A stretch of DNA of 63,562 bases, filler included, from Collodictyon triciliatum (taxonomy: Eukaryota), in the NCBI GenBank assembly GCA_043381765.1. It is 9 parts of 9 records of this genome, joined end to end, with 100 filler letters (N's around TTAATTAATTAA, not from the genome) between each part and the next. Parts side by side here need not be neighbours in the genome. Positions count along the whole stretch, not along the records: positions 14,186 to 21,163 come from JBHJMP010004135.1; 8 more parts are not named here. One strand, 5' to 3'. A program made the translations under genes and the position numbers. The notes beneath the pieces are model-generated. The model saw nothing but the letters and a program-made list of their open reading frames with translations. It was not told the origin of the DNA and made no database searches. This document shows positions 6,974 to 21,370 of this stretch, one piece after another; positions within the stretch are counted from its first letter, which is position 1, and each line of letters starts with the position of its first letter.

Positions 6974-7073
6974 NNNNNNNNNNNNNNNNNNNNNNNNNNN
7001 NNNNNNNNNNNNNNNNNTTAATTAATTAANNNNNNNNNNNNNNNNNNNNNNNNNNNNNNNNNNNNNNNNNNNN
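6974..7073. other. Artificial scaffold-joining spacer (N44-TTAATTAATTAA-N44); repeated at 14086, 21164, 28234, 35302, 42368, 49434 and 56499
   Basis: Identical 100-bp all-frame-stop linker about every 7.07 kb; the intervening pieces are 6964-7012 bp and roughly size-sorted. Confidence 0.98.
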
Positions 7074-10032: not shown

Positions 10033-10774
10033 CAAACACATTTTTATTCATTTATCGAACGCCATGGCTATCTAGATAAAGTTAAAATCGGTCTATTTGG
10101 ATAAGCTAATGGTACTTTATACTTCAAGACATCCAAGTTTTGAGGCTAGGTGCACAGTTGCCATGTGAATACGATTAATATGTTACTTTCAATTGAATAA
10201 AGGGAGGATATTTTTAAGAAGTCCTTTGATATTACATGACAAATGTGCTCATTTATCCTGTTGCACATATTTTTTTGGTCCATATGCTAATCATTAAGGA
10301 AAAAACGGCAGCTAGCTGACCAAGCTAAATGAGTCAGGCATATGTTCCATCTCATGAGGAATGTATATGTGCCTAACCATCGGAGCAAGGTAAATTGGAA
10401 CCTCACACTCGACAGTGTCTGTGTGCGATGGTGTTGGTGATGAACCAGAATAAGGGAAAGCATGATGGCCTTTTTGATATTTGNNNNNNNNNNNNNNNNN
10501 NNNNNNNNNNNNNNNNNNNNNNNNNNNNNNNNNNNNNNNNNNNNNNNNNNNNNNNNNNNNNNNNNNNNNNNNNNNNNNNNNNNNNNNNNNNNNNNNNNNN
10601 NNNNNNNNNNNNNNNNNNNNNNNNNNNNNNNNNNNNNNNNNNNNNNNNNNNNNNNNNNNNNNNNNNNNNNNNNNNNNNNNNNNNNNNNNNNNNNNNNNNN
10701 NNNNNNNNNNNNNNNNNNNNNNNNNNNNNNNNNNNNNNNNNNNNNNNNNNNNNTTTTTCTTTTTCTTTTTTCTT

Positions 10775-11553
10775 TTACAAACCGGAGAAAATGAGTCGTT
10801 GGGCCGAAACTATAGGCATTATAGACCCGCCGATAGTCAAAAGCTGGAAGCAAGCCCGTATACCTCAGTTACTCCCAAAACACCGTGCCCTACTTCTCAA
10901 TATCTCCAACAGAGAGCTGTGGATGGGTGCGCGTGTAGTCCATGCAGCAACGACCTCTCCAGAATGCACCATGTGCCATAGTGGAGATGACTCTATCGAA
11001 CACACATTTGTGAAGTGCTCTCTTGCTCAAAAAGTGACAGAGTCTACCCACAAGATGCTCTCTGAGCTTGAATTATGCTCTCAACCGGCTCAGCGCGTCT
11101 GACATCCTGTTTGGCCCACAATACCAAATGACCCACGACTCTAGAATACTCTGGACAGTCACAAGGGGACATATGCTGTGGTCCTTATGGAGTGTGCGCA
11201 TTCTCTCGCTCTAATGATTCACTCGAACGAGAAATCCATGTATCCAGGCTTGAAAGCCTCGTTCGATACAGCTTCCTGAACAGCCTGCTGAAACACGCCT
11301 GCATTCTTTGCTACTCTGACCGCAAGCGAAGAGAGATGTGGGAATGGGTCATGCGATATCTCCCACAGCATATCCAACTCCTGCTACCCACGCAACCAAT
11401 CAAACAGTTGGGACGCCCACATGACCAACTCGCTATCACTGATTTCTTTCGCAGTAGCGACCTCTTCACGGCATCACAAAACCCAGAGCCGCAGGTTTTT
11501 CGCACCAGCGAATCCATCCCTGCACGTCAAATTTACATTTAATATACAATAAA
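10775..11553 (+). mobile_element. Degenerate 3' end of an L1/Tx1-like non-LTR retrotransposon (ORF2 C-terminal zinc finger)
   Basis: CTMCHSGDDSIEHTFVKC (zf-RVT CxxC..E+.EH.F..C), then ILFG..., LWTVTRGHMLWSLW; frameshifted; homologous to 50855-51454. Confidence 0.85.
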
Positions 11554-11576
11554 TTTCCGACTCTCATCAAGAAAAT

Positions 11577-11648
11577 AGCAAAGTGGCGCAGTGGGAGCGT
11601 GCTGGGCCCATAACCCAGATGTCCCAGGATCGAAACCTGGCTTTGCTA
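11577..11648 (+). tRNA. Initiator tRNA-Met(CAT)
   Basis: A1:T72 pair (AGCAAAG...CTTTGCT), anticodon arm CTGGG-CCCATAA-CCCAG with three G:C pairs, GATC in the T loop. Confidence 0.97.
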
Positions 11649-11974
11649 GTTCGTGTTCTTTTTGGCGCTCCAGTGAGGCCTCCAGCAATCCAACAGTCTC
11701 GTCTGCCGCAACTGGGATTCTTGTTTGGGTGGAGACGATGCGATACACTGCTGTGTTTGCATGGCAAGATTGGTCAACTTTTTTGCATCTGATTCGGGTT
11801 GGAATGTGTTCTCTTCACAAACCCTGCTTATGGCGCGACGAAATGGCGTTGTTGGGTATTAAACTATTTTATATTTAGTGGCTGGTTTTAGGTGAAGAAA
11901 TAAAAGACCGATGTGAGATTATCTCTCATCGAATTGGAGCATCTTGTCACGATTTTTTATATCGTTTGTTTGCT

Positions 11975-13830: not shown

Positions 13831-14387
13831 TTATGAAACATAGTTGAAAATTAATAATGCAGACACTTTTTGTATATCCTTCTGTTATTGGTTTTTTTTT
13901 TGGTTTTTCTTGGTTTTTCTTGGTTTTTCTTGGTTTTTCTTGGTTTTTCTTGGTTTTTTTGGTTTTTTTGGTTTTTTTGGTTTTTTTTGTTTTTTTGGTT
14001 TTTTTTTGGTTTTTTTTGGTTTTTTTTTGGTTTTTTTTTGGTTTTTTTTGGTTTTTTTGGTTTTTTTTGGTTTTTTTGGTTTTTTNNNNNNNNNNNNNNN
14101 NNNNNNNNNNNNNNNNNNNNNNNNNNNNNTTAATTAATTAANNNNNNNNNNNNNNNNNNNNNNNNNNNNNNNNNNNNNNNNNNNNAAAAAAAAAAAAAAA
14201 AAAAAAAAAAAAAACAAAAAAAAAAAAAAACAAAAAAACAAAAAAACAAAAAAACAAAAAAAACAAAAAACAAAAAAAACCATGAACAAATACACACACT
14301 AAATCAATTGCAATATTCAAATGCATTAAATCGAACATATCACTCTCGAAATATTAGAAAATCGAGCCTTTCAAACTGACTATCCCT

Positions 14388-16813
14388 TTGGCGCACCAAG
14401 ATAATCCCACCTTAAACTTCGACGATAAATTTAATGACATGATTCGACACGAGTATACATATCATAGTTTTCTAAATTTGCAATGTAAAGAGAAAGCATT
14501 TCTCCCCTTCTACGATTCTAAGACATACAACATATTAATTAAAATAGATATGCTGTTCGTTATCTTGAACACCTTGGGGTTAAGGCGAGCAACACAAACA
14601 TATCTATGGTCCTTATTCCATTTCTTTATTTCACTTCTTAGGATTATTTATACCATAACAAAGCCTATATATGTTCTCTGACACATATGTTACTATCTTC
14701 GAATCAGCCACCCTTAAATTTAATTTGTAACCCATTCAACACAGGTAAGGTCTCAGATACCTATCGAAGAAAGTGATGTTACAGCATTTTATCGATCGCG
14801 AGGATGGCTCGCTGATTATCTTCAAATTGTATGTTTGCGATGTGTACTATCATATATGAAGCATGCGGTTTCAAAATAAAATCTTCTCCAACACATAATC
14901 TCACAATTTTTTTTGAACCTTAAGAAACCATCAAACTTGACGAAAGAAAGAAAAGTAAGGCTTCGTGCAAACTCCAAGTTGGTTTCTAATATTTCTGCGA
15001 TAGCAAACGACAAAATTGACCCTCGTGAGGTAATTAAACGAATAAATACTTTTTCATCGCGTGTTTTTATGCCACCAATCATAGTAAAATGAAGTACTTT
15101 TGACTAANNNNNNNNNNNNNNNNNNNNNNNNNNNNNNNNNNNNNNNNNNNNNNNNNNNNNNNNNNNNNNNNNNNNNNNNNNNNNNNNNNNNNNNNNNNNN
15201 NNNNNNNNNNNNNNNNNNNNNNNNNNNNNNNNNNNNNNNNNNNNNNNNNNNNNNNNNNNNNNNNNNNNNNNNNNNNNNNNNNNNNNNNNNNNNNNNNNNN
15301 NNNNNNNNNNNNNNNNNNNNNNNNNNNNNNNNNNNNNNNNNNNNNNNNNNNNNNNNNNNNNNNNNNNNNNNNNNNNNNNNNNNNNNNNNNNNNNNNNNNN
15401 NNNNNNNNNNNNNNNNNNNNNNNNNNNNNNNNNNNNNNNNNNNNNNNNNNNNNNNNNNNNNNNNNNNNNNNNNNNNNNNNNNNNNNNNNNNNNNNNNNNN
15501 NNNNNNNNNNNNNNNNNNNNNNNNNNNNNNNNNNNNNNNNNNNNNNNNNNNNNNNNNNNNNNNNNNNNNNNNNNNNNNNGAAATCCTACTCCTCCATCCA
15601 ACCTGGCTCTGATGGGAATCAGACAAGCAAATCATCCCAGGCGCATGCACCTATATCAGCACGAAAATCAGTTGCATTTGAAGGGGTTTGTGGAACTATC
15701 TTAGATATAACACTCGAAGTGGGTTGCTTTTATTGATAAATAAAAAAATCACATATTTTCATTTCTCATTTGTATTACGCGTAGGATGCTGCGAATAATA
15801 CACAGCCCCAGCCGAATTCAAGTATATCTTAACGAATTTGATAACATTATAACAATAAGAAAGGAAATTATGCTGATGCTAAATACCCCCAGTGACCATA
15901 CTCTCCTCATGATTTTTTTTTTAATTCTTGAATCCAATATATTGTTTTTTTTTAGACCCTCGGATTGATATTATGGAAATAGAAGAGGCCGAAGAGGAGC
16001 TTATTACGACAAATCTAAATGTTGGCGACACATTAGTAACTGACATACAACAAGCATTCATTGATAAATATTCCTTCGATACAATGCAACACAGACTTAG
16101 CGATGAAAACATTGCTGTACTAAAAAAGGAGCTTTCTTCTATACACCAAAGTATAAACTTTAGCTGTCAAATATTTTCATTAGTTTTATTTTTTCTTACC
16201 TATATTTCGTTTCATTTCACTTCACTACACCAATACCGTGTTTTCTTCTGCGCTCCTGCTCTGATATTCCTTCTTATTTCCTAACTATTTGCAACTTCGT
16301 TGCTGTGTAAAATTAAATCTTTTAAATTCAATTACAGCAAGATTCATCGCTATGACCTGTGAGTATTTGTACTGGAAATTCCTTGGAAAAAGAGTACTGG
16401 ACGAACAATCTCAGTATGGAATATCAAGGCCTATTCGCCCTGAAAACCTCCAAAACTATGAGAAGCACTACTTTCTATCCCTGCATCAGGTATTTGTAAT
16501 ATGAAAACCAACCAAATGATTATGGTTCACAAATCCCTTAGTGATTATCCAATCATATTAATGTACATGAATTCAATTATATCGCTACAGAAAGTTGAAT
16601 AATGAACCGCATTCGAGGGTTTTTTTTTATTTTTTTTATTTTTTTCTAATGCTTTCTTTATTCTCCCTACATACTGTAGATTTACAATAAAATCGAGACC
16701 AGAGTCCAGAAAAAGCTAGGACATAAGATAATATATATACCCGTTATTTTACTTATGCTGCGCGTTTCGGTTGAAGTAACTTTCTTCCTTTCAATGTGTG
16801 CTTTCTTTTTTTA

Positions 16814-18597: not shown

Positions 18598-19149
18598 TCG
18601 CAACCTCGCGCGTCGTAGACGAAGGAAAACAAGGAGCCCCACGCAGCTTTCTCCTTCATGTCTTTTCTTATCATCTCTCTTTCATTTCCATTTCTTACAT
18701 CTGAGCTTACATATCACCCATGCTTGCGTGAAAGGAAGGCAGTGCGCATCTCTCATACTGATGAGGTTTTTTAATATTTATATTTGATTGAAAAAACTAT
18801 CAAAAAATAATAGGGAATCGAAGGATAATTCCTTTTAAAATTCATCCAAATATAATCAGATTAAAGTTTTATTTGCCAAGTTCATATCGTGGAAGAATAA
18901 TCCACTTTTTTTTTTTTAAAAAAAAAAATAGAAGTATACACAGAGTAATAAATTTGAAGAGAACTTCTTTCTTTATTCGATTCAAGGGGAGGGATTTTAG
19001 ATTATTTTTTTTTTACAGTCCGACGTAGTTGTATGCGCCTTGGTTGAAAGCAGTGACGCGTGTCGGATAAGGGTGCATGCTGGCTTGGTACGGAAGCTGG
19101 ATTCATGGTCGTCACTATGCGCCTGAGATGGTTGAGAATAATTACAACT

Positions 19150-19199
19150 CTAAAAAGCAGTACCTTGAATCGAATAAAGGAGAAAATCAAACAGTTCCT
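19150..19199 (+). mobile_element. Ultra-short retro-insertion, family A, with degenerate TSD
   Basis: AAAGCAGTACCT + TGAATCGAATAAAGGAGAAAATC + AAACAGTTCCT. Confidence 0.55.
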
Positions 19200-20620
19200 A
19201 ATGATGAGAATATTACGGAAGCTATTAAAAAGGCAGAGTTACGAAGGTTAAAAAAAAAAAATAATCCATCTTCAAGAATCTCGAAATACCGGAACAATAT
19301 AAAGAATGGGCTATAACGCATCTGAATCATATCATTTTCAGTGATATTGTAATGATATCAAATATGACGTCAAAGTCTATCCAAATAAGTACATTCCATG
19401 TCTGATTTACATGAATCGCATTTTTGAGGACATTGGAACCAAACTGTTTCAACCAATCCCCATAAGAACTAACAATTTTTTTATATTCTTCCTTTCAATT
19501 TTGTGCAGGATGGTGAAGATGTTGGCACATAAGAACTAACAATATACCATGTCATATTAGTCTAGATATTGATGTTTGATAGATATACTAGTAATATCTG
19601 TAAAATCATCATTACTGAAGAATATATCAGGATGCAAAGAGACCTATGTGATGATTTCTTTGAAATGAAGAAGAGGGTCTTTCATCAAAGAGACCACAAT
19701 TTTAAATACATGATACAAACAGACGGCTTGGCGGTGTCATTATTATTTGAAAAGAAAGGTATTCTAAATTCAAAATCCAAATATAATCAATCAAAAGACC
19801 GGAGAATATGTTTATATAGATGAGCTTTCCGAAGAGCAGTTATTTATATTAGCGAAAAAAAATAGCTGGAGTGGACTCAGGCAAGTTTAATTTGGTTTAC
19901 ATGGTGGATGAGACAGGTAAGAAATTACGTTACACGACACACCAAAGAATATATGATAGCAAATCTCTTAAAAACCACAAAATACTCTTGCGCGATAAAA
20001 AAAAAAGAAAAGCACAAGGCTTCAGGGATATGCATGGTAACAGATTTTCAAAGTGCTGTTTCTTTTGGTGCCATGACTTTTGAAGAAAATCAGCGGTTTG
20101 AGAGATTAAGAGTATCCTTAATCGATTTAGAGACAGAACTGAGTAAACATAATTCATGCACGGCCAATTATGAAAAATTCGGAAATATGTATCTATTAAA
20201 TCAAGATACCAGATAGAATTTTCCAGATTTTACGAACAAGGAACTTTTCGAAAGATGAGATGGACACAGTATGTTAGTAAACAAAGAAGTGAACACTTGT
20301 TTATGAACCGAATTGAAAAGACATTAGGCAAGGATGTTGTCCTGGCGTTGGAGACTGGAGCAGAAAATCCCCGATAAAACATTTTATGCCACCAATTGGG
20401 AGAGGATTACGAAAAATACTATCCAAACGTGTTGAAACAGTTTTTGTAGATGAATTTAGAACCTCCAAGATGCGCTGCAATTGCAAAAAAAGAACTGGAA
20501 TATATGAAGCCGAAAGGAAGTAAAAAAAGTGTATAGATGTCTCACATGAAAAGAATGCAATCGCTTAGAAAGCAAACAAACTGTATTCTTGACAAGGGAC
20601 TCTAACCAGCGATAAAAAAA
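19186..20620 (+). pseudogene. Fanzor1 (eukaryotic TnpB/Cas12-family RNA-guided endonuclease), 5'-truncated and frameshifted
   Basis: Across frames: YDVKVYPNKYIPCLIYMNRIFE..KLFQPIPIRTNNIPCHISLD; YMIQTDGLAVSLLF (TDG ~19719); RuvC-I IAGVDSGKFNLVYM (D 19874); LRYTTHQR; ETELSKHNS; FYEQGTFRKMRW; GDWS..KHFMPPIGRGLRK; RuvC-II VDEFRTSK (E 20452); Zn-finger CNC..CLT*KEC; RuvC-III TRDSN (D 20598). Confidence 0.9.
19461..19543 (-). mobile_element. 51-bp 5'-truncated LINE 3' end (family B) inserted into the Fanzor ORF, perfect 16-bp TSD
   Basis: CATAAGAACTAACAAT at 19461-19476 and 19528-19543. The insert's reverse complement, ...CCATCCTGCACAAAATTGAAAGGAAGAATATAAAAAA, matches the LINE tail at 51405-51454. 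Confidence 0.85.
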
Positions 20621-20660
20621 AATATATTCAACCAAGTTCTTTTAATCCTTCATAAAATGC

Positions 20661-20793
20661 ATACACCTTCCTCTAAAAAACAGGCTGTTGGGTCTTTCCT
20701 GGCAGCCTTCACCACTATGCAATCTTTGTGAAAAAAGTGGTGAGACCTTGCATACTAGCGCACCAGGTTTACCAATCGAAAGATTTGTGTATA
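20661..20793 (+). ncRNA. Putative Fanzor omegaRNA scaffold / transposon right end
   Basis: Lies directly 3' of RuvC-III. Hairpins 20683-20707, 20709-20743 (TCACCACT/AGTGGTGA) and 20774-20785 (AATC-GAAA-GATT); pseudoknot ATGCAA (20717-22) with TTGCAT (20748-53). Confidence 0.65.
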
Positions 20794-20879
20794 CCCCTTC
20801 TAGTAATACAATACTTGACGAAAACTAAAATCATGCCAAAATATTATTTATATATTATTATCTCCTTGCTGTATAAGAA

Positions 20880-20950
20880 GCATTGTTGGTGTAGTGGCAG
20901 CATGATAGCCTTCCAAGCTGTCGACCCGGGTTCGATTCCCGGACAATGCA
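20880..20950 (+). tRNA. tRNA-Gly(TCC)
   Basis: Acceptor stem GCATTGT...ACAATGC, anticodon arm ATAGC-CTTCCAA-GCTGT, T arm CCGGG-TTCGATT-CCCGG, TTTT terminator. Confidence 0.97.
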
Positions 20951-21370
20951 TTTTGCCTGCCGCGACTTTTTCCTCAAGGCGTGGGACGCCTCTGCCCCTG
21001 CAACCATTAAAAAAAAAACCCCCCTCCGCGGTCGCAATCGCCTATGCCATCGTCAGACCAGAATAAATCTTTTTCTTCTGTTCTTGGTACCCATTGATTT
21101 TTATTTTTATTTTTATTGTATAGTTCTCGTCAGGTCGGATTGTATTTACAAGTACAGCGAACGNNNNNNNNNNNNNNNNNNNNNNNNNNNNNNNNNNNNN
21201 NNNNNNNTTAATTAATTAANNNNNNNNNNNNNNNNNNNNNNNNNNNNNNNNNNNNNNNNNNNNTTTTATTTTTGTTTTGTTTTTATTTTTGTTTTGTTTT
21301 TATTTTTGTTTTGTTTTTTTTTGTTTTTTTTTTGTTCTTATCTTTTATTCATATTTTTGTGCCCATAAGG

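Follow-up and report, generated by a model that had tools for sequence, protein, structure and literature searches.

In this study, we believe that positions 20661-20815 of the window, which is the whole 63,562-nucleotide stretch of Collodictyon triciliatum DNA that was analysed (filler included), are probably relic sequence from the right, omegaRNA-coding part of a Fanzor1 transposon copy that has decayed, and that the surviving part is most likely the front half of the scaffold. The evidence, read from sequence, makes this assignment probable by four observations: the position at the end of the nuclease ORF, a fold of the + strand, a covarying module in relatives, and a match to a covariance model (R3) of that module. 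Against it stand the negative results of two other models (R1 and R2), a 3' half that folds no better than shuffles, the lack of a left-end copy and about a dozen comparable folds elsewhere in the window. The features discussed are as follows.

19265-20731, + strand: remnant of a decayed Fanzor1 gene (tblastn with the protein P0002, E 3e-54)
20606-20731, + strand: C-terminal tail frame of the dead ORF, …KKQAVGSFLAAFTTMQSL, with TGA at 20729-20731 (stop-to-stop frame)
20683-20707, + strand: hairpin 1, GGCTGTTGGG (20683-20692) with CCTGGCAGCC (20698-20707), 10 bp, three G:U pairs, loop TCTTT (fold and R3)
20708-20744, + strand: second helix, a perfect 8-bp stem of TCACCACT (20709-20716) and AGTGGTGA (20736-20743) (fold and R3)
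20744-20768, + strand: third predicted hairpin, GACCTTGC…GCACCAGGTT, no better than chance, counterpart not found
20774-20785, + strand: 4-bp hairpin with a GAAA loop, AATC-GAAA-GATT, seen in the sequence, without comparative support
20787-20793, + strand: GTGTATA, the proposed right end, able to pair with ATACAC at 20661-20666 and like GGTGTAA at the motif level
20794-20810, + strand: proposed flank-derived guide CCCCTTCTAGTAATACA, placed by position
20880-20950, + strand: tRNA-Gly(UCC), a neighbour outside the element, 87 nt past the proposed end (ARAGORN; Rfam tRNA, 63.1 bits)

The dead Fanzor1 gene and its surroundings

The window is eukaryotic, with host genes broken by introns (kinase, WD40 and DUF2817 pieces), three tRNA genes and no long ORFs of the prokaryotic style. 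One 68-aa fragment, used as a search query, led to P0002, a relative of the window copy that is intact and 648 aa long, and residues 182-641 of P0002 aligned to positions 19265-20716 in three frames (tblastn, E 3e-54). The E-values of P0002 against the solved Fanzor1 chains GtFz1 (Guillardia), PpFz1 (Parasitella) and SpuFz1 (Spizellomyces) were 2e-28, 3e-24 and 4e-23, respectively, and its relatives at E<=1e-3 numbered 3147 among cluster representatives. The first-pass annotation had called the gene dead, and this was borne out by the three frames, the in-frame stops and a longest stop-free stretch of 116 aa. The RuvC motifs GVDSGK, VDEFRTSK…CNC and TRDSN are still readable, and by its homology to solved nucleases, its RuvC-I/II/III motifs and its zinc ribbon the remnant belongs to Fanzor1 as a pseudogene member. 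No second copy of the element was found in the window.

The tail frame PAIKKNIFNQVLLILHKMHTPSSKKQAVGSFLAAFTTMQSL ends at the TGA at 20729-20731. It was identical to the P0002 tail at 16 of 31 positions (BLASTP, E 2e-5), and the 41-aa tail used as a protein query gave no match. Protein-level homology to P0002 extends to about 20713, so the element does not lose its homology before 20680, the limit that the first-pass annotation had set for its proposal. The ORF tail and the 5' part of the candidate therefore share sequence, and the coding sequence includes the 5' strand of the closing helix, hairpin 1 (which encodes AVGSFLAA), the 5' arm of the 8-bp stem and most of its loop, in which the stop codon sits. 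The tails of the closest intact relatives, P0001 and P0002 (KKQAVG…(T/A)A), would permit a hairpin of this kind too. The candidate had been placed downstream of the dead Fanzor; the strand and the 3' end were right, but the RNA overlaps an ORF whose frame runs on to the stop codon.

Some further observations were made on the pseudogene and its neighbourhood. A 16-nt perfect direct repeat, with its copies 67 nt apart, lies within the pseudogene (19461-19543), and one metagenome contig connects 19461 to 19529 and omits 67 nt; therefore, the window copy has a 67-nt duplication or insertion that is absent from a sibling. A zf-RVT relic (Pfam E 5.9e-8), the tail of a reverse transcriptase, was found at 10755-11099 on the + strand, about 480 nt upstream of tRNA-Met (11576-11649), an arrangement like that of the Fanzor relic and tRNA-Gly. 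Four clustered tRNA genes lie 36 nt from the start of the left terminal repeat in one relative, a giant-virus element (L001:789-1138). Regions flanking tRNA genes here may collect mobile elements. As a habit of the family, adjacency to tRNA genes was rejected, because such genes were present in just 2 of the 28 relatives' loci checked.

Sequencing runs with the window sequence had shares of <=0.11 and were mostly freshwater or lake metagenomes, with no RNA run among those listed. Many short (117-313 nt), diverged metagenome contigs from Logan lay over 18943-20886, with a pile-up on the tRNA that came from other organisms; among the contigs listed, cover of the Fanzor region reached 20717 only. 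The window also holds paired 44-N runs about every 7066 bases (for example, 6974-7073, 14086-14185 and 21164-21263) and two longer N runs (10484-10753 and 15108-15579), all of which seem to be masked stretches or gaps of the assembly and not biological features.

Fold of the candidate RNA

Every pairing that the first-pass annotation named could be located in the sequence, namely hairpin 1, the 8-bp stem and the GAAA hairpin as listed above, the closing helix of ATACAC (20661-20666) with GTGTAT (20787-20792), the putative pseudoknot pairing of ATGCAA (20717-20722) with TTGCAT (20748-20753), and the alternative pairing of GGTCT (20691-20695) with AGACC (20743-20747). RNAfold gave -41 kcal/mol for the + strand of 20661-20815 (z -3.10, 1 of 200 shuffles as good), in a structure essentially like the one first proposed: the closing helix has 6 bp and the first hairpin 11 bp, and the 8-bp stem, a third hairpin and the GAAA hairpin are present. 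The z-value of the opposite strand was -0.52. The candidate is thus encoded on the strand of the nuclease, at and over the 3' end of its ORF, with a tail running to 20731 and a fold specific to the + strand.

The two halves of the candidate behaved differently. The z-values of 20679-20744 (hairpin 1 and the 8-bp stem) and 20744-20793 (third and GAAA hairpins) were -4.35 and -1.32, and the shuffles folding as well were 0 and 24 of 200, respectively. The fold signal is confined to the 5' half, 20679-20744. For the genomic background, 6060 windows of 133 nt were taken from both strands of the window. Folds as good as that of the candidate were obtained for 0.6% of the 978 GC-matched windows, and by the composition-corrected residual it ranked in the best 0.4%. 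About two dozen overlapping windows, amounting to about a dozen places, gave comparable folds, which makes the candidate unusual, not unique. In Rfam, the only matches at the gathering threshold were tRNAs, none of them at the candidate, and no match was obtained at E<=10 over 20400-20900.

Taken singly, the features could arise by chance. Among 3000 dinucleotide shuffles, 153 had a perfect hairpin stem of at least 8 bp, and a 6-nt complement between the loop of the stem and the next 30 nt appeared in 265 of 5000. These counts, together with the dozen or so window loci that fold equally well, favour a chance or composition fold in decaying sequence, for which the R3 match described below would reflect a generic two-hairpin shape and not descent from an omegaRNA. 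We consider this explanation unlikely: the z-value of the 5' half speaks against it, and so do the three G:U pairs, which make hairpin 1 strand-specific.

The RNA module of relatives and the covariance models

The relatives' loci (n=160, L001-L160) came from lake and other metagenomes and from viral contigs, many of them giant-virus bins; the alignment-based scan kept 80 of 566 confirmed loci from metagenomes and 80 of 469 from viral contigs. These loci encode an uninterrupted Fanzor1 whose best segment is 36-47% identical to P0002, and no close relative of P0002 was found in the viral and metagenome contigs scanned. In the aligned relatives, a conserved RNA module spans the 3' end of the ORF. 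The conserved stretch runs from about 95-130 nt before the stop codon to 47-82 nt past it and ends in GGTGTAA, directly after which conservation breaks off (33 of the 33 loci listed). An inverse copy of the right end was present at the left end in 9 of the 14 loci checked; the relatives therefore carry terminal inverted repeats, the right one of which forms part of the scaffold.

Three alignments described the structure of this module. In A4, there were 18 pairs with 91.2% of cells paired, 11 of them with double changes, and 0 of 500 shuffles equalled this; the structure consists of a helix closing a 7-bp stem behind an invariant TTCAC, and a third hairpin. A5 contained a 12-bp terminal helix, TTTTACAC…/…GGTGTAA, with 96.4% paired. 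A6, made from the clade closest to P0002 (L001-L006 and L082-L085, 41-48% identity), had 21 pairs with 91.3% paired and 14 with double changes, and this clade has an extra covarying 10-bp hairpin just upstream of the module. Among these giant-virus and lake elements, the Fanzor1 scaffold measures ~165-195 nt over the ORF end (for example, L007:4229-4409 and L001:4289-4452), and the pairing partner of the right terminal repeat (…GGTGTAA) is the internal copy TTTTACAC…. A minimal variant was seen at L085:3260-3327, which lacks the inner 4-7-bp stem and has, as its closing helix, a simple hairpin of 8 bp, TTGACTAC…GTAGTCAA; its stop codon lies in the loop of this hairpin, the same layout as in the window.

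Three covariance models, R1, R2 and R3, were all built without the window sequence. R1 covers the 5' module, and 28 of its 33 sequences are from the larger, more distant clade. In a search of the whole window, the candidate was absent among the 25 matches of R1 at E<=10, and a local search there gave 3.2 bits only; in the control, R1 recovered 10 of the 11 loci kept out of it (E<=2e-4). R2 describes the 3' module, of which the right terminal repeat is a part. It had no match at the candidate at E<=10 in the whole window and nothing in a local search of the + strand, and in its control it found 10 of 14 held-out loci at E<0.01, while L004, L005, L006 and L085 were not above background. Profiles of the relatives' 3' halves (nhmmer) gave no match in 20745-20800. 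Matches to the larger clade had been picked out by eye (TTCAC, GAAAAAGT, AGACC, GGTTTAC and GTGTA); R1 and R2 gave them no support, and they were rejected.

R3 was built from 9 loci of the closest clade and describes the 5' module of that clade, first hairpin included. Its top match in the whole window (both strands, filters off) was 20679-20757 on the + strand, with 18.2 bits and E 4.4e-4, and the next-best match had 9.4 bits. All 21 of 21 pairs were standard, including all 10 of hairpin 1. In the control, the true site was the top match in 15 of 15 held-out loci of the other clade (10.9-25.3 bits), and the best off-site match had 11.5 bits. The calibration of R3 was shortened and its E-value is therefore rough, but the location and strand of the match and its distance from background are independent of the calibration. 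In the R3 alignment, hairpin 1 corresponds to the relatives' first hairpin and the 8-bp stem to their closing helix. The second helix in this register has 7 bp (20708-20714 with 20738-20744) and encloses a weak 4-bp inner stem (20718-20721 with 20727-20730), the stop codon and the A-rich segment GAAAAAAGU (20731-20737), and the window AAAAAAG is aligned to the relatives' invariant GA(A/G)AAAGU. When the window was added to the alignment, several pairs acquired a new type and remained paired, in an alignment that is fitted to R3 and biased in that direction.

For a chance fold, the negative R1 and R2 searches and the rough calibration of R3 count in favour. On the other side, the best of all R3 matches over the 127 kb of strand searched coincides exactly with the end of the Fanzor ORF, on the ORF strand, and it lies 8.8 bits above the next match and above every off-site match in 196 kb of control strand. 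We keep to the reading of a probable omegaRNA relic, in a narrower form than was first claimed. The proposed identity as an omegaRNA found support in the first two stems, which match the relatives' covarying module in R3, but not in the 3' half, which matches none. The third hairpin and the GAAA hairpin, of which the latter had been counted as part of a well-paired RNA, fold no better than chance (24 of 200 shuffles), and neither R2 nor nhmmer matched them.

The window resembles the closest clade in having a 10-bp hairpin followed by a helix around a small stem and an A-rich segment, which in the clade reads GA(A/G)AAAGU. Compared with the L001-L160 elements as a whole, it lacks three features, namely the invariant TTGATTTTAC, an internal copy pairing with the right terminal repeat, and an end of the form GGCGTTTTAAATG…GGTGTAA; it is missed by the model in which the larger clade dominates (R1), and it lies in a cellular genome with introns, not in a viral contig.

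Two other pairings of the first-pass annotation were not upheld. For the H-type pseudoknot, 0-3 of the 6 aligned cells pair in each of 8 relatives (in the R3-fitted alignment), against 6 of 6 in the window, where the pairing itself is of a kind seen in 265 of 5000 shuffles. Such a pseudoknot would leave no linker on the 5' side between its two stems, which would be sterically awkward. The word "pseudoknot" does not occur in PMC11423790. The alternative GGTCT/AGACC pairing competes with hairpin 1, and the R3 register favours hairpin 1.

The proposed right end and guide, and what the probable relic means

The border at 20793, which is unsupported, was drawn from the closing helix and a motif-level echo of GGTGTAA. 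In the relatives, the terminal GTGTAA pairs with a nearby internal copy; the closing helix of the window encloses the whole fold and is not equivalent to it. A right terminal repeat with an internal pairing copy and an inverse at the left end was not found in the window. The search of the window for a left-end inverted copy of the proposed end was negative, with a best local alignment score of 24, which 30 of 200 shuffles matched. The short TATACACA at 18935-18942 is the inverse of TGTGTATA at the proposed right end and could be a remnant of a left end, and the cover by metagenome contigs begins just after it. As the left end of the element it was rejected, because it sits where the N-terminal third of the ORF is expected and the match does not extend.

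It is quite possible, if short of probable, that the 5' module is real and the border is not near 20793, the right end being elsewhere or lost by truncation or decay, and CCCCTTCTAGTAATACA never having been a guide. The proposed scaffold extends 49 nt past the second helix here and about 95 nt in the relatives; neither the terminal-repeat module nor its left-end partner was detected; the 3' half is not structured beyond chance; and GTGTAT can also pair with ATACA at 20806-20810, inside the supposed guide. Three points favour a border at 20793: the whole fold is closed by a helix, the last one predicted, that ends at 20792; GTGTA at the terminus recalls the invariant GGTGTAA of the relatives; and little may follow the first stem-loop in published Fz1 scaffolds, such as that of PpFz1, whose SL2 has 4 bp (PMC11423790).

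Published Fz omegaRNAs are located at the 3' end of the ORF, or overlap it, and extend into the right end (PMC10432273 and PMC10530073). For example, the GtFz1 omegaRNA is reported to overlap 17 codons of the ORF (PMC10432273, Saito et al. 2023), and the structure of the ApmFNuc fRNA reaches into the coding region (PMC10530073, Jiang et al. 2023). The first stem-loop is described as conserved and the remaining scaffold as variable (PMC11423790, Xu et al. 2024). As far as these accounts go, the candidate shares with the SpuFz1, GtFz1 and PpFz1 omegaRNAs the strand of the nuclease, the position at the 3' end of the ORF and the overlap with its last codons, and its front module is likewise the part shared with relatives. 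The layout of the window can be likened to the published one, in which stem-loops are followed by a flank-derived guide, with the guide here a proposal. By the same accounts, the published Fanzor1 omegaRNAs have a 7-bp SL1, to which no window stem has been mapped as the equivalent, and the SpuFz1 scaffold spans the 3' inverted repeat, whereas no terminal inverted repeat was detected in the window. The window also differs from these published cases in that its nuclease gene is dead and its RNA is predicted from DNA.

By analogy with active relatives, the 3' end of the nuclease transcript, overlapping the last codons, would fold into a scaffold bound by the nuclease. In the ancestral element, transcription would have passed through the end of the ORF, and the nuclease would then have bound the front stem-loops. 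The surviving front module would be the 10-bp hairpin at 20683-20707, followed directly by the 7-8-bp helix at 20708-20744. The scaffold may have continued to about 20793, and the bases that follow may once have been the guide; in the analogous systems, the 15-21 nt past the end of the element serve as the guide, and such a guide would have directed cutting of DNA with a matching flank next to a TAM.

The copy is most likely inert, because its nuclease gene is broken. With the nuclease broken, the RNA could therefore act only in trans, as ghost loci do. The first-pass annotation had taken the RNA to be better preserved than the ORF and perhaps active in this manner. We consider it very improbable that the relic is an orphan "ghost" omegaRNA still in use and loaded by an intact Fanzor1 whose gene lies at another place in the genome. 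There is precedent, as the S. punctatus ghost loci are reported to yield working omegaRNAs (PMC10432273) and C. reinhardtii to have 20 extra fRNA copies (PMC10530073). In addition, the 21 modelled pairs are all intact beside a broken ORF, and freshwater metagenome contigs contain multiple copies of the family, in identity classes ranging from 99+% down to below 90%. On the other side, no intact Fanzor1 copy is present in the window, and the closest intact protein found, P0002, is just about 52-61% identical to the window copy in the best segments. By a rough estimate, not computed, it is not improbable for 42 bases to stay paired under modest decay. The relic shares with the ghost Spu-1 loci and the extra fRNA copies, as these are described, a scaffold persisting without a working nuclease gene next to it. 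The ghost loci are portrayed there as clean, conserved, repeat-flanked, short and expressed; in the window, the dead ORF is still attached.

A bolder generalisation, which we regard as quite unlikely, is that omegaRNA is modular, with a front module common to this freshwater eukaryote and lake giant viruses and a different rear module derived from the end of the element. If true, the protein-bound core would travel with the nuclease while the tail is swapped with the transposon end. It would also suggest exchange of Fanzor1 between giant viruses and their hosts and, in the boldest form, a scaffold loaded in trans.

The relic opens no new question by itself, and its comparative value is modest: the front two helices are recognisable at 41-48% protein identity to giant-virus Fanzor1s, and the rear part derived from the terminal repeat is not. 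This contrast of front and rear agrees with published work, in which the first stem-loop is conserved and the remainder evolves freely. What the window adds is one more probable case, in decayed form, of the known rule that the guide-RNA scaffold of Fanzor1 lies over the 3' end of its ORF.
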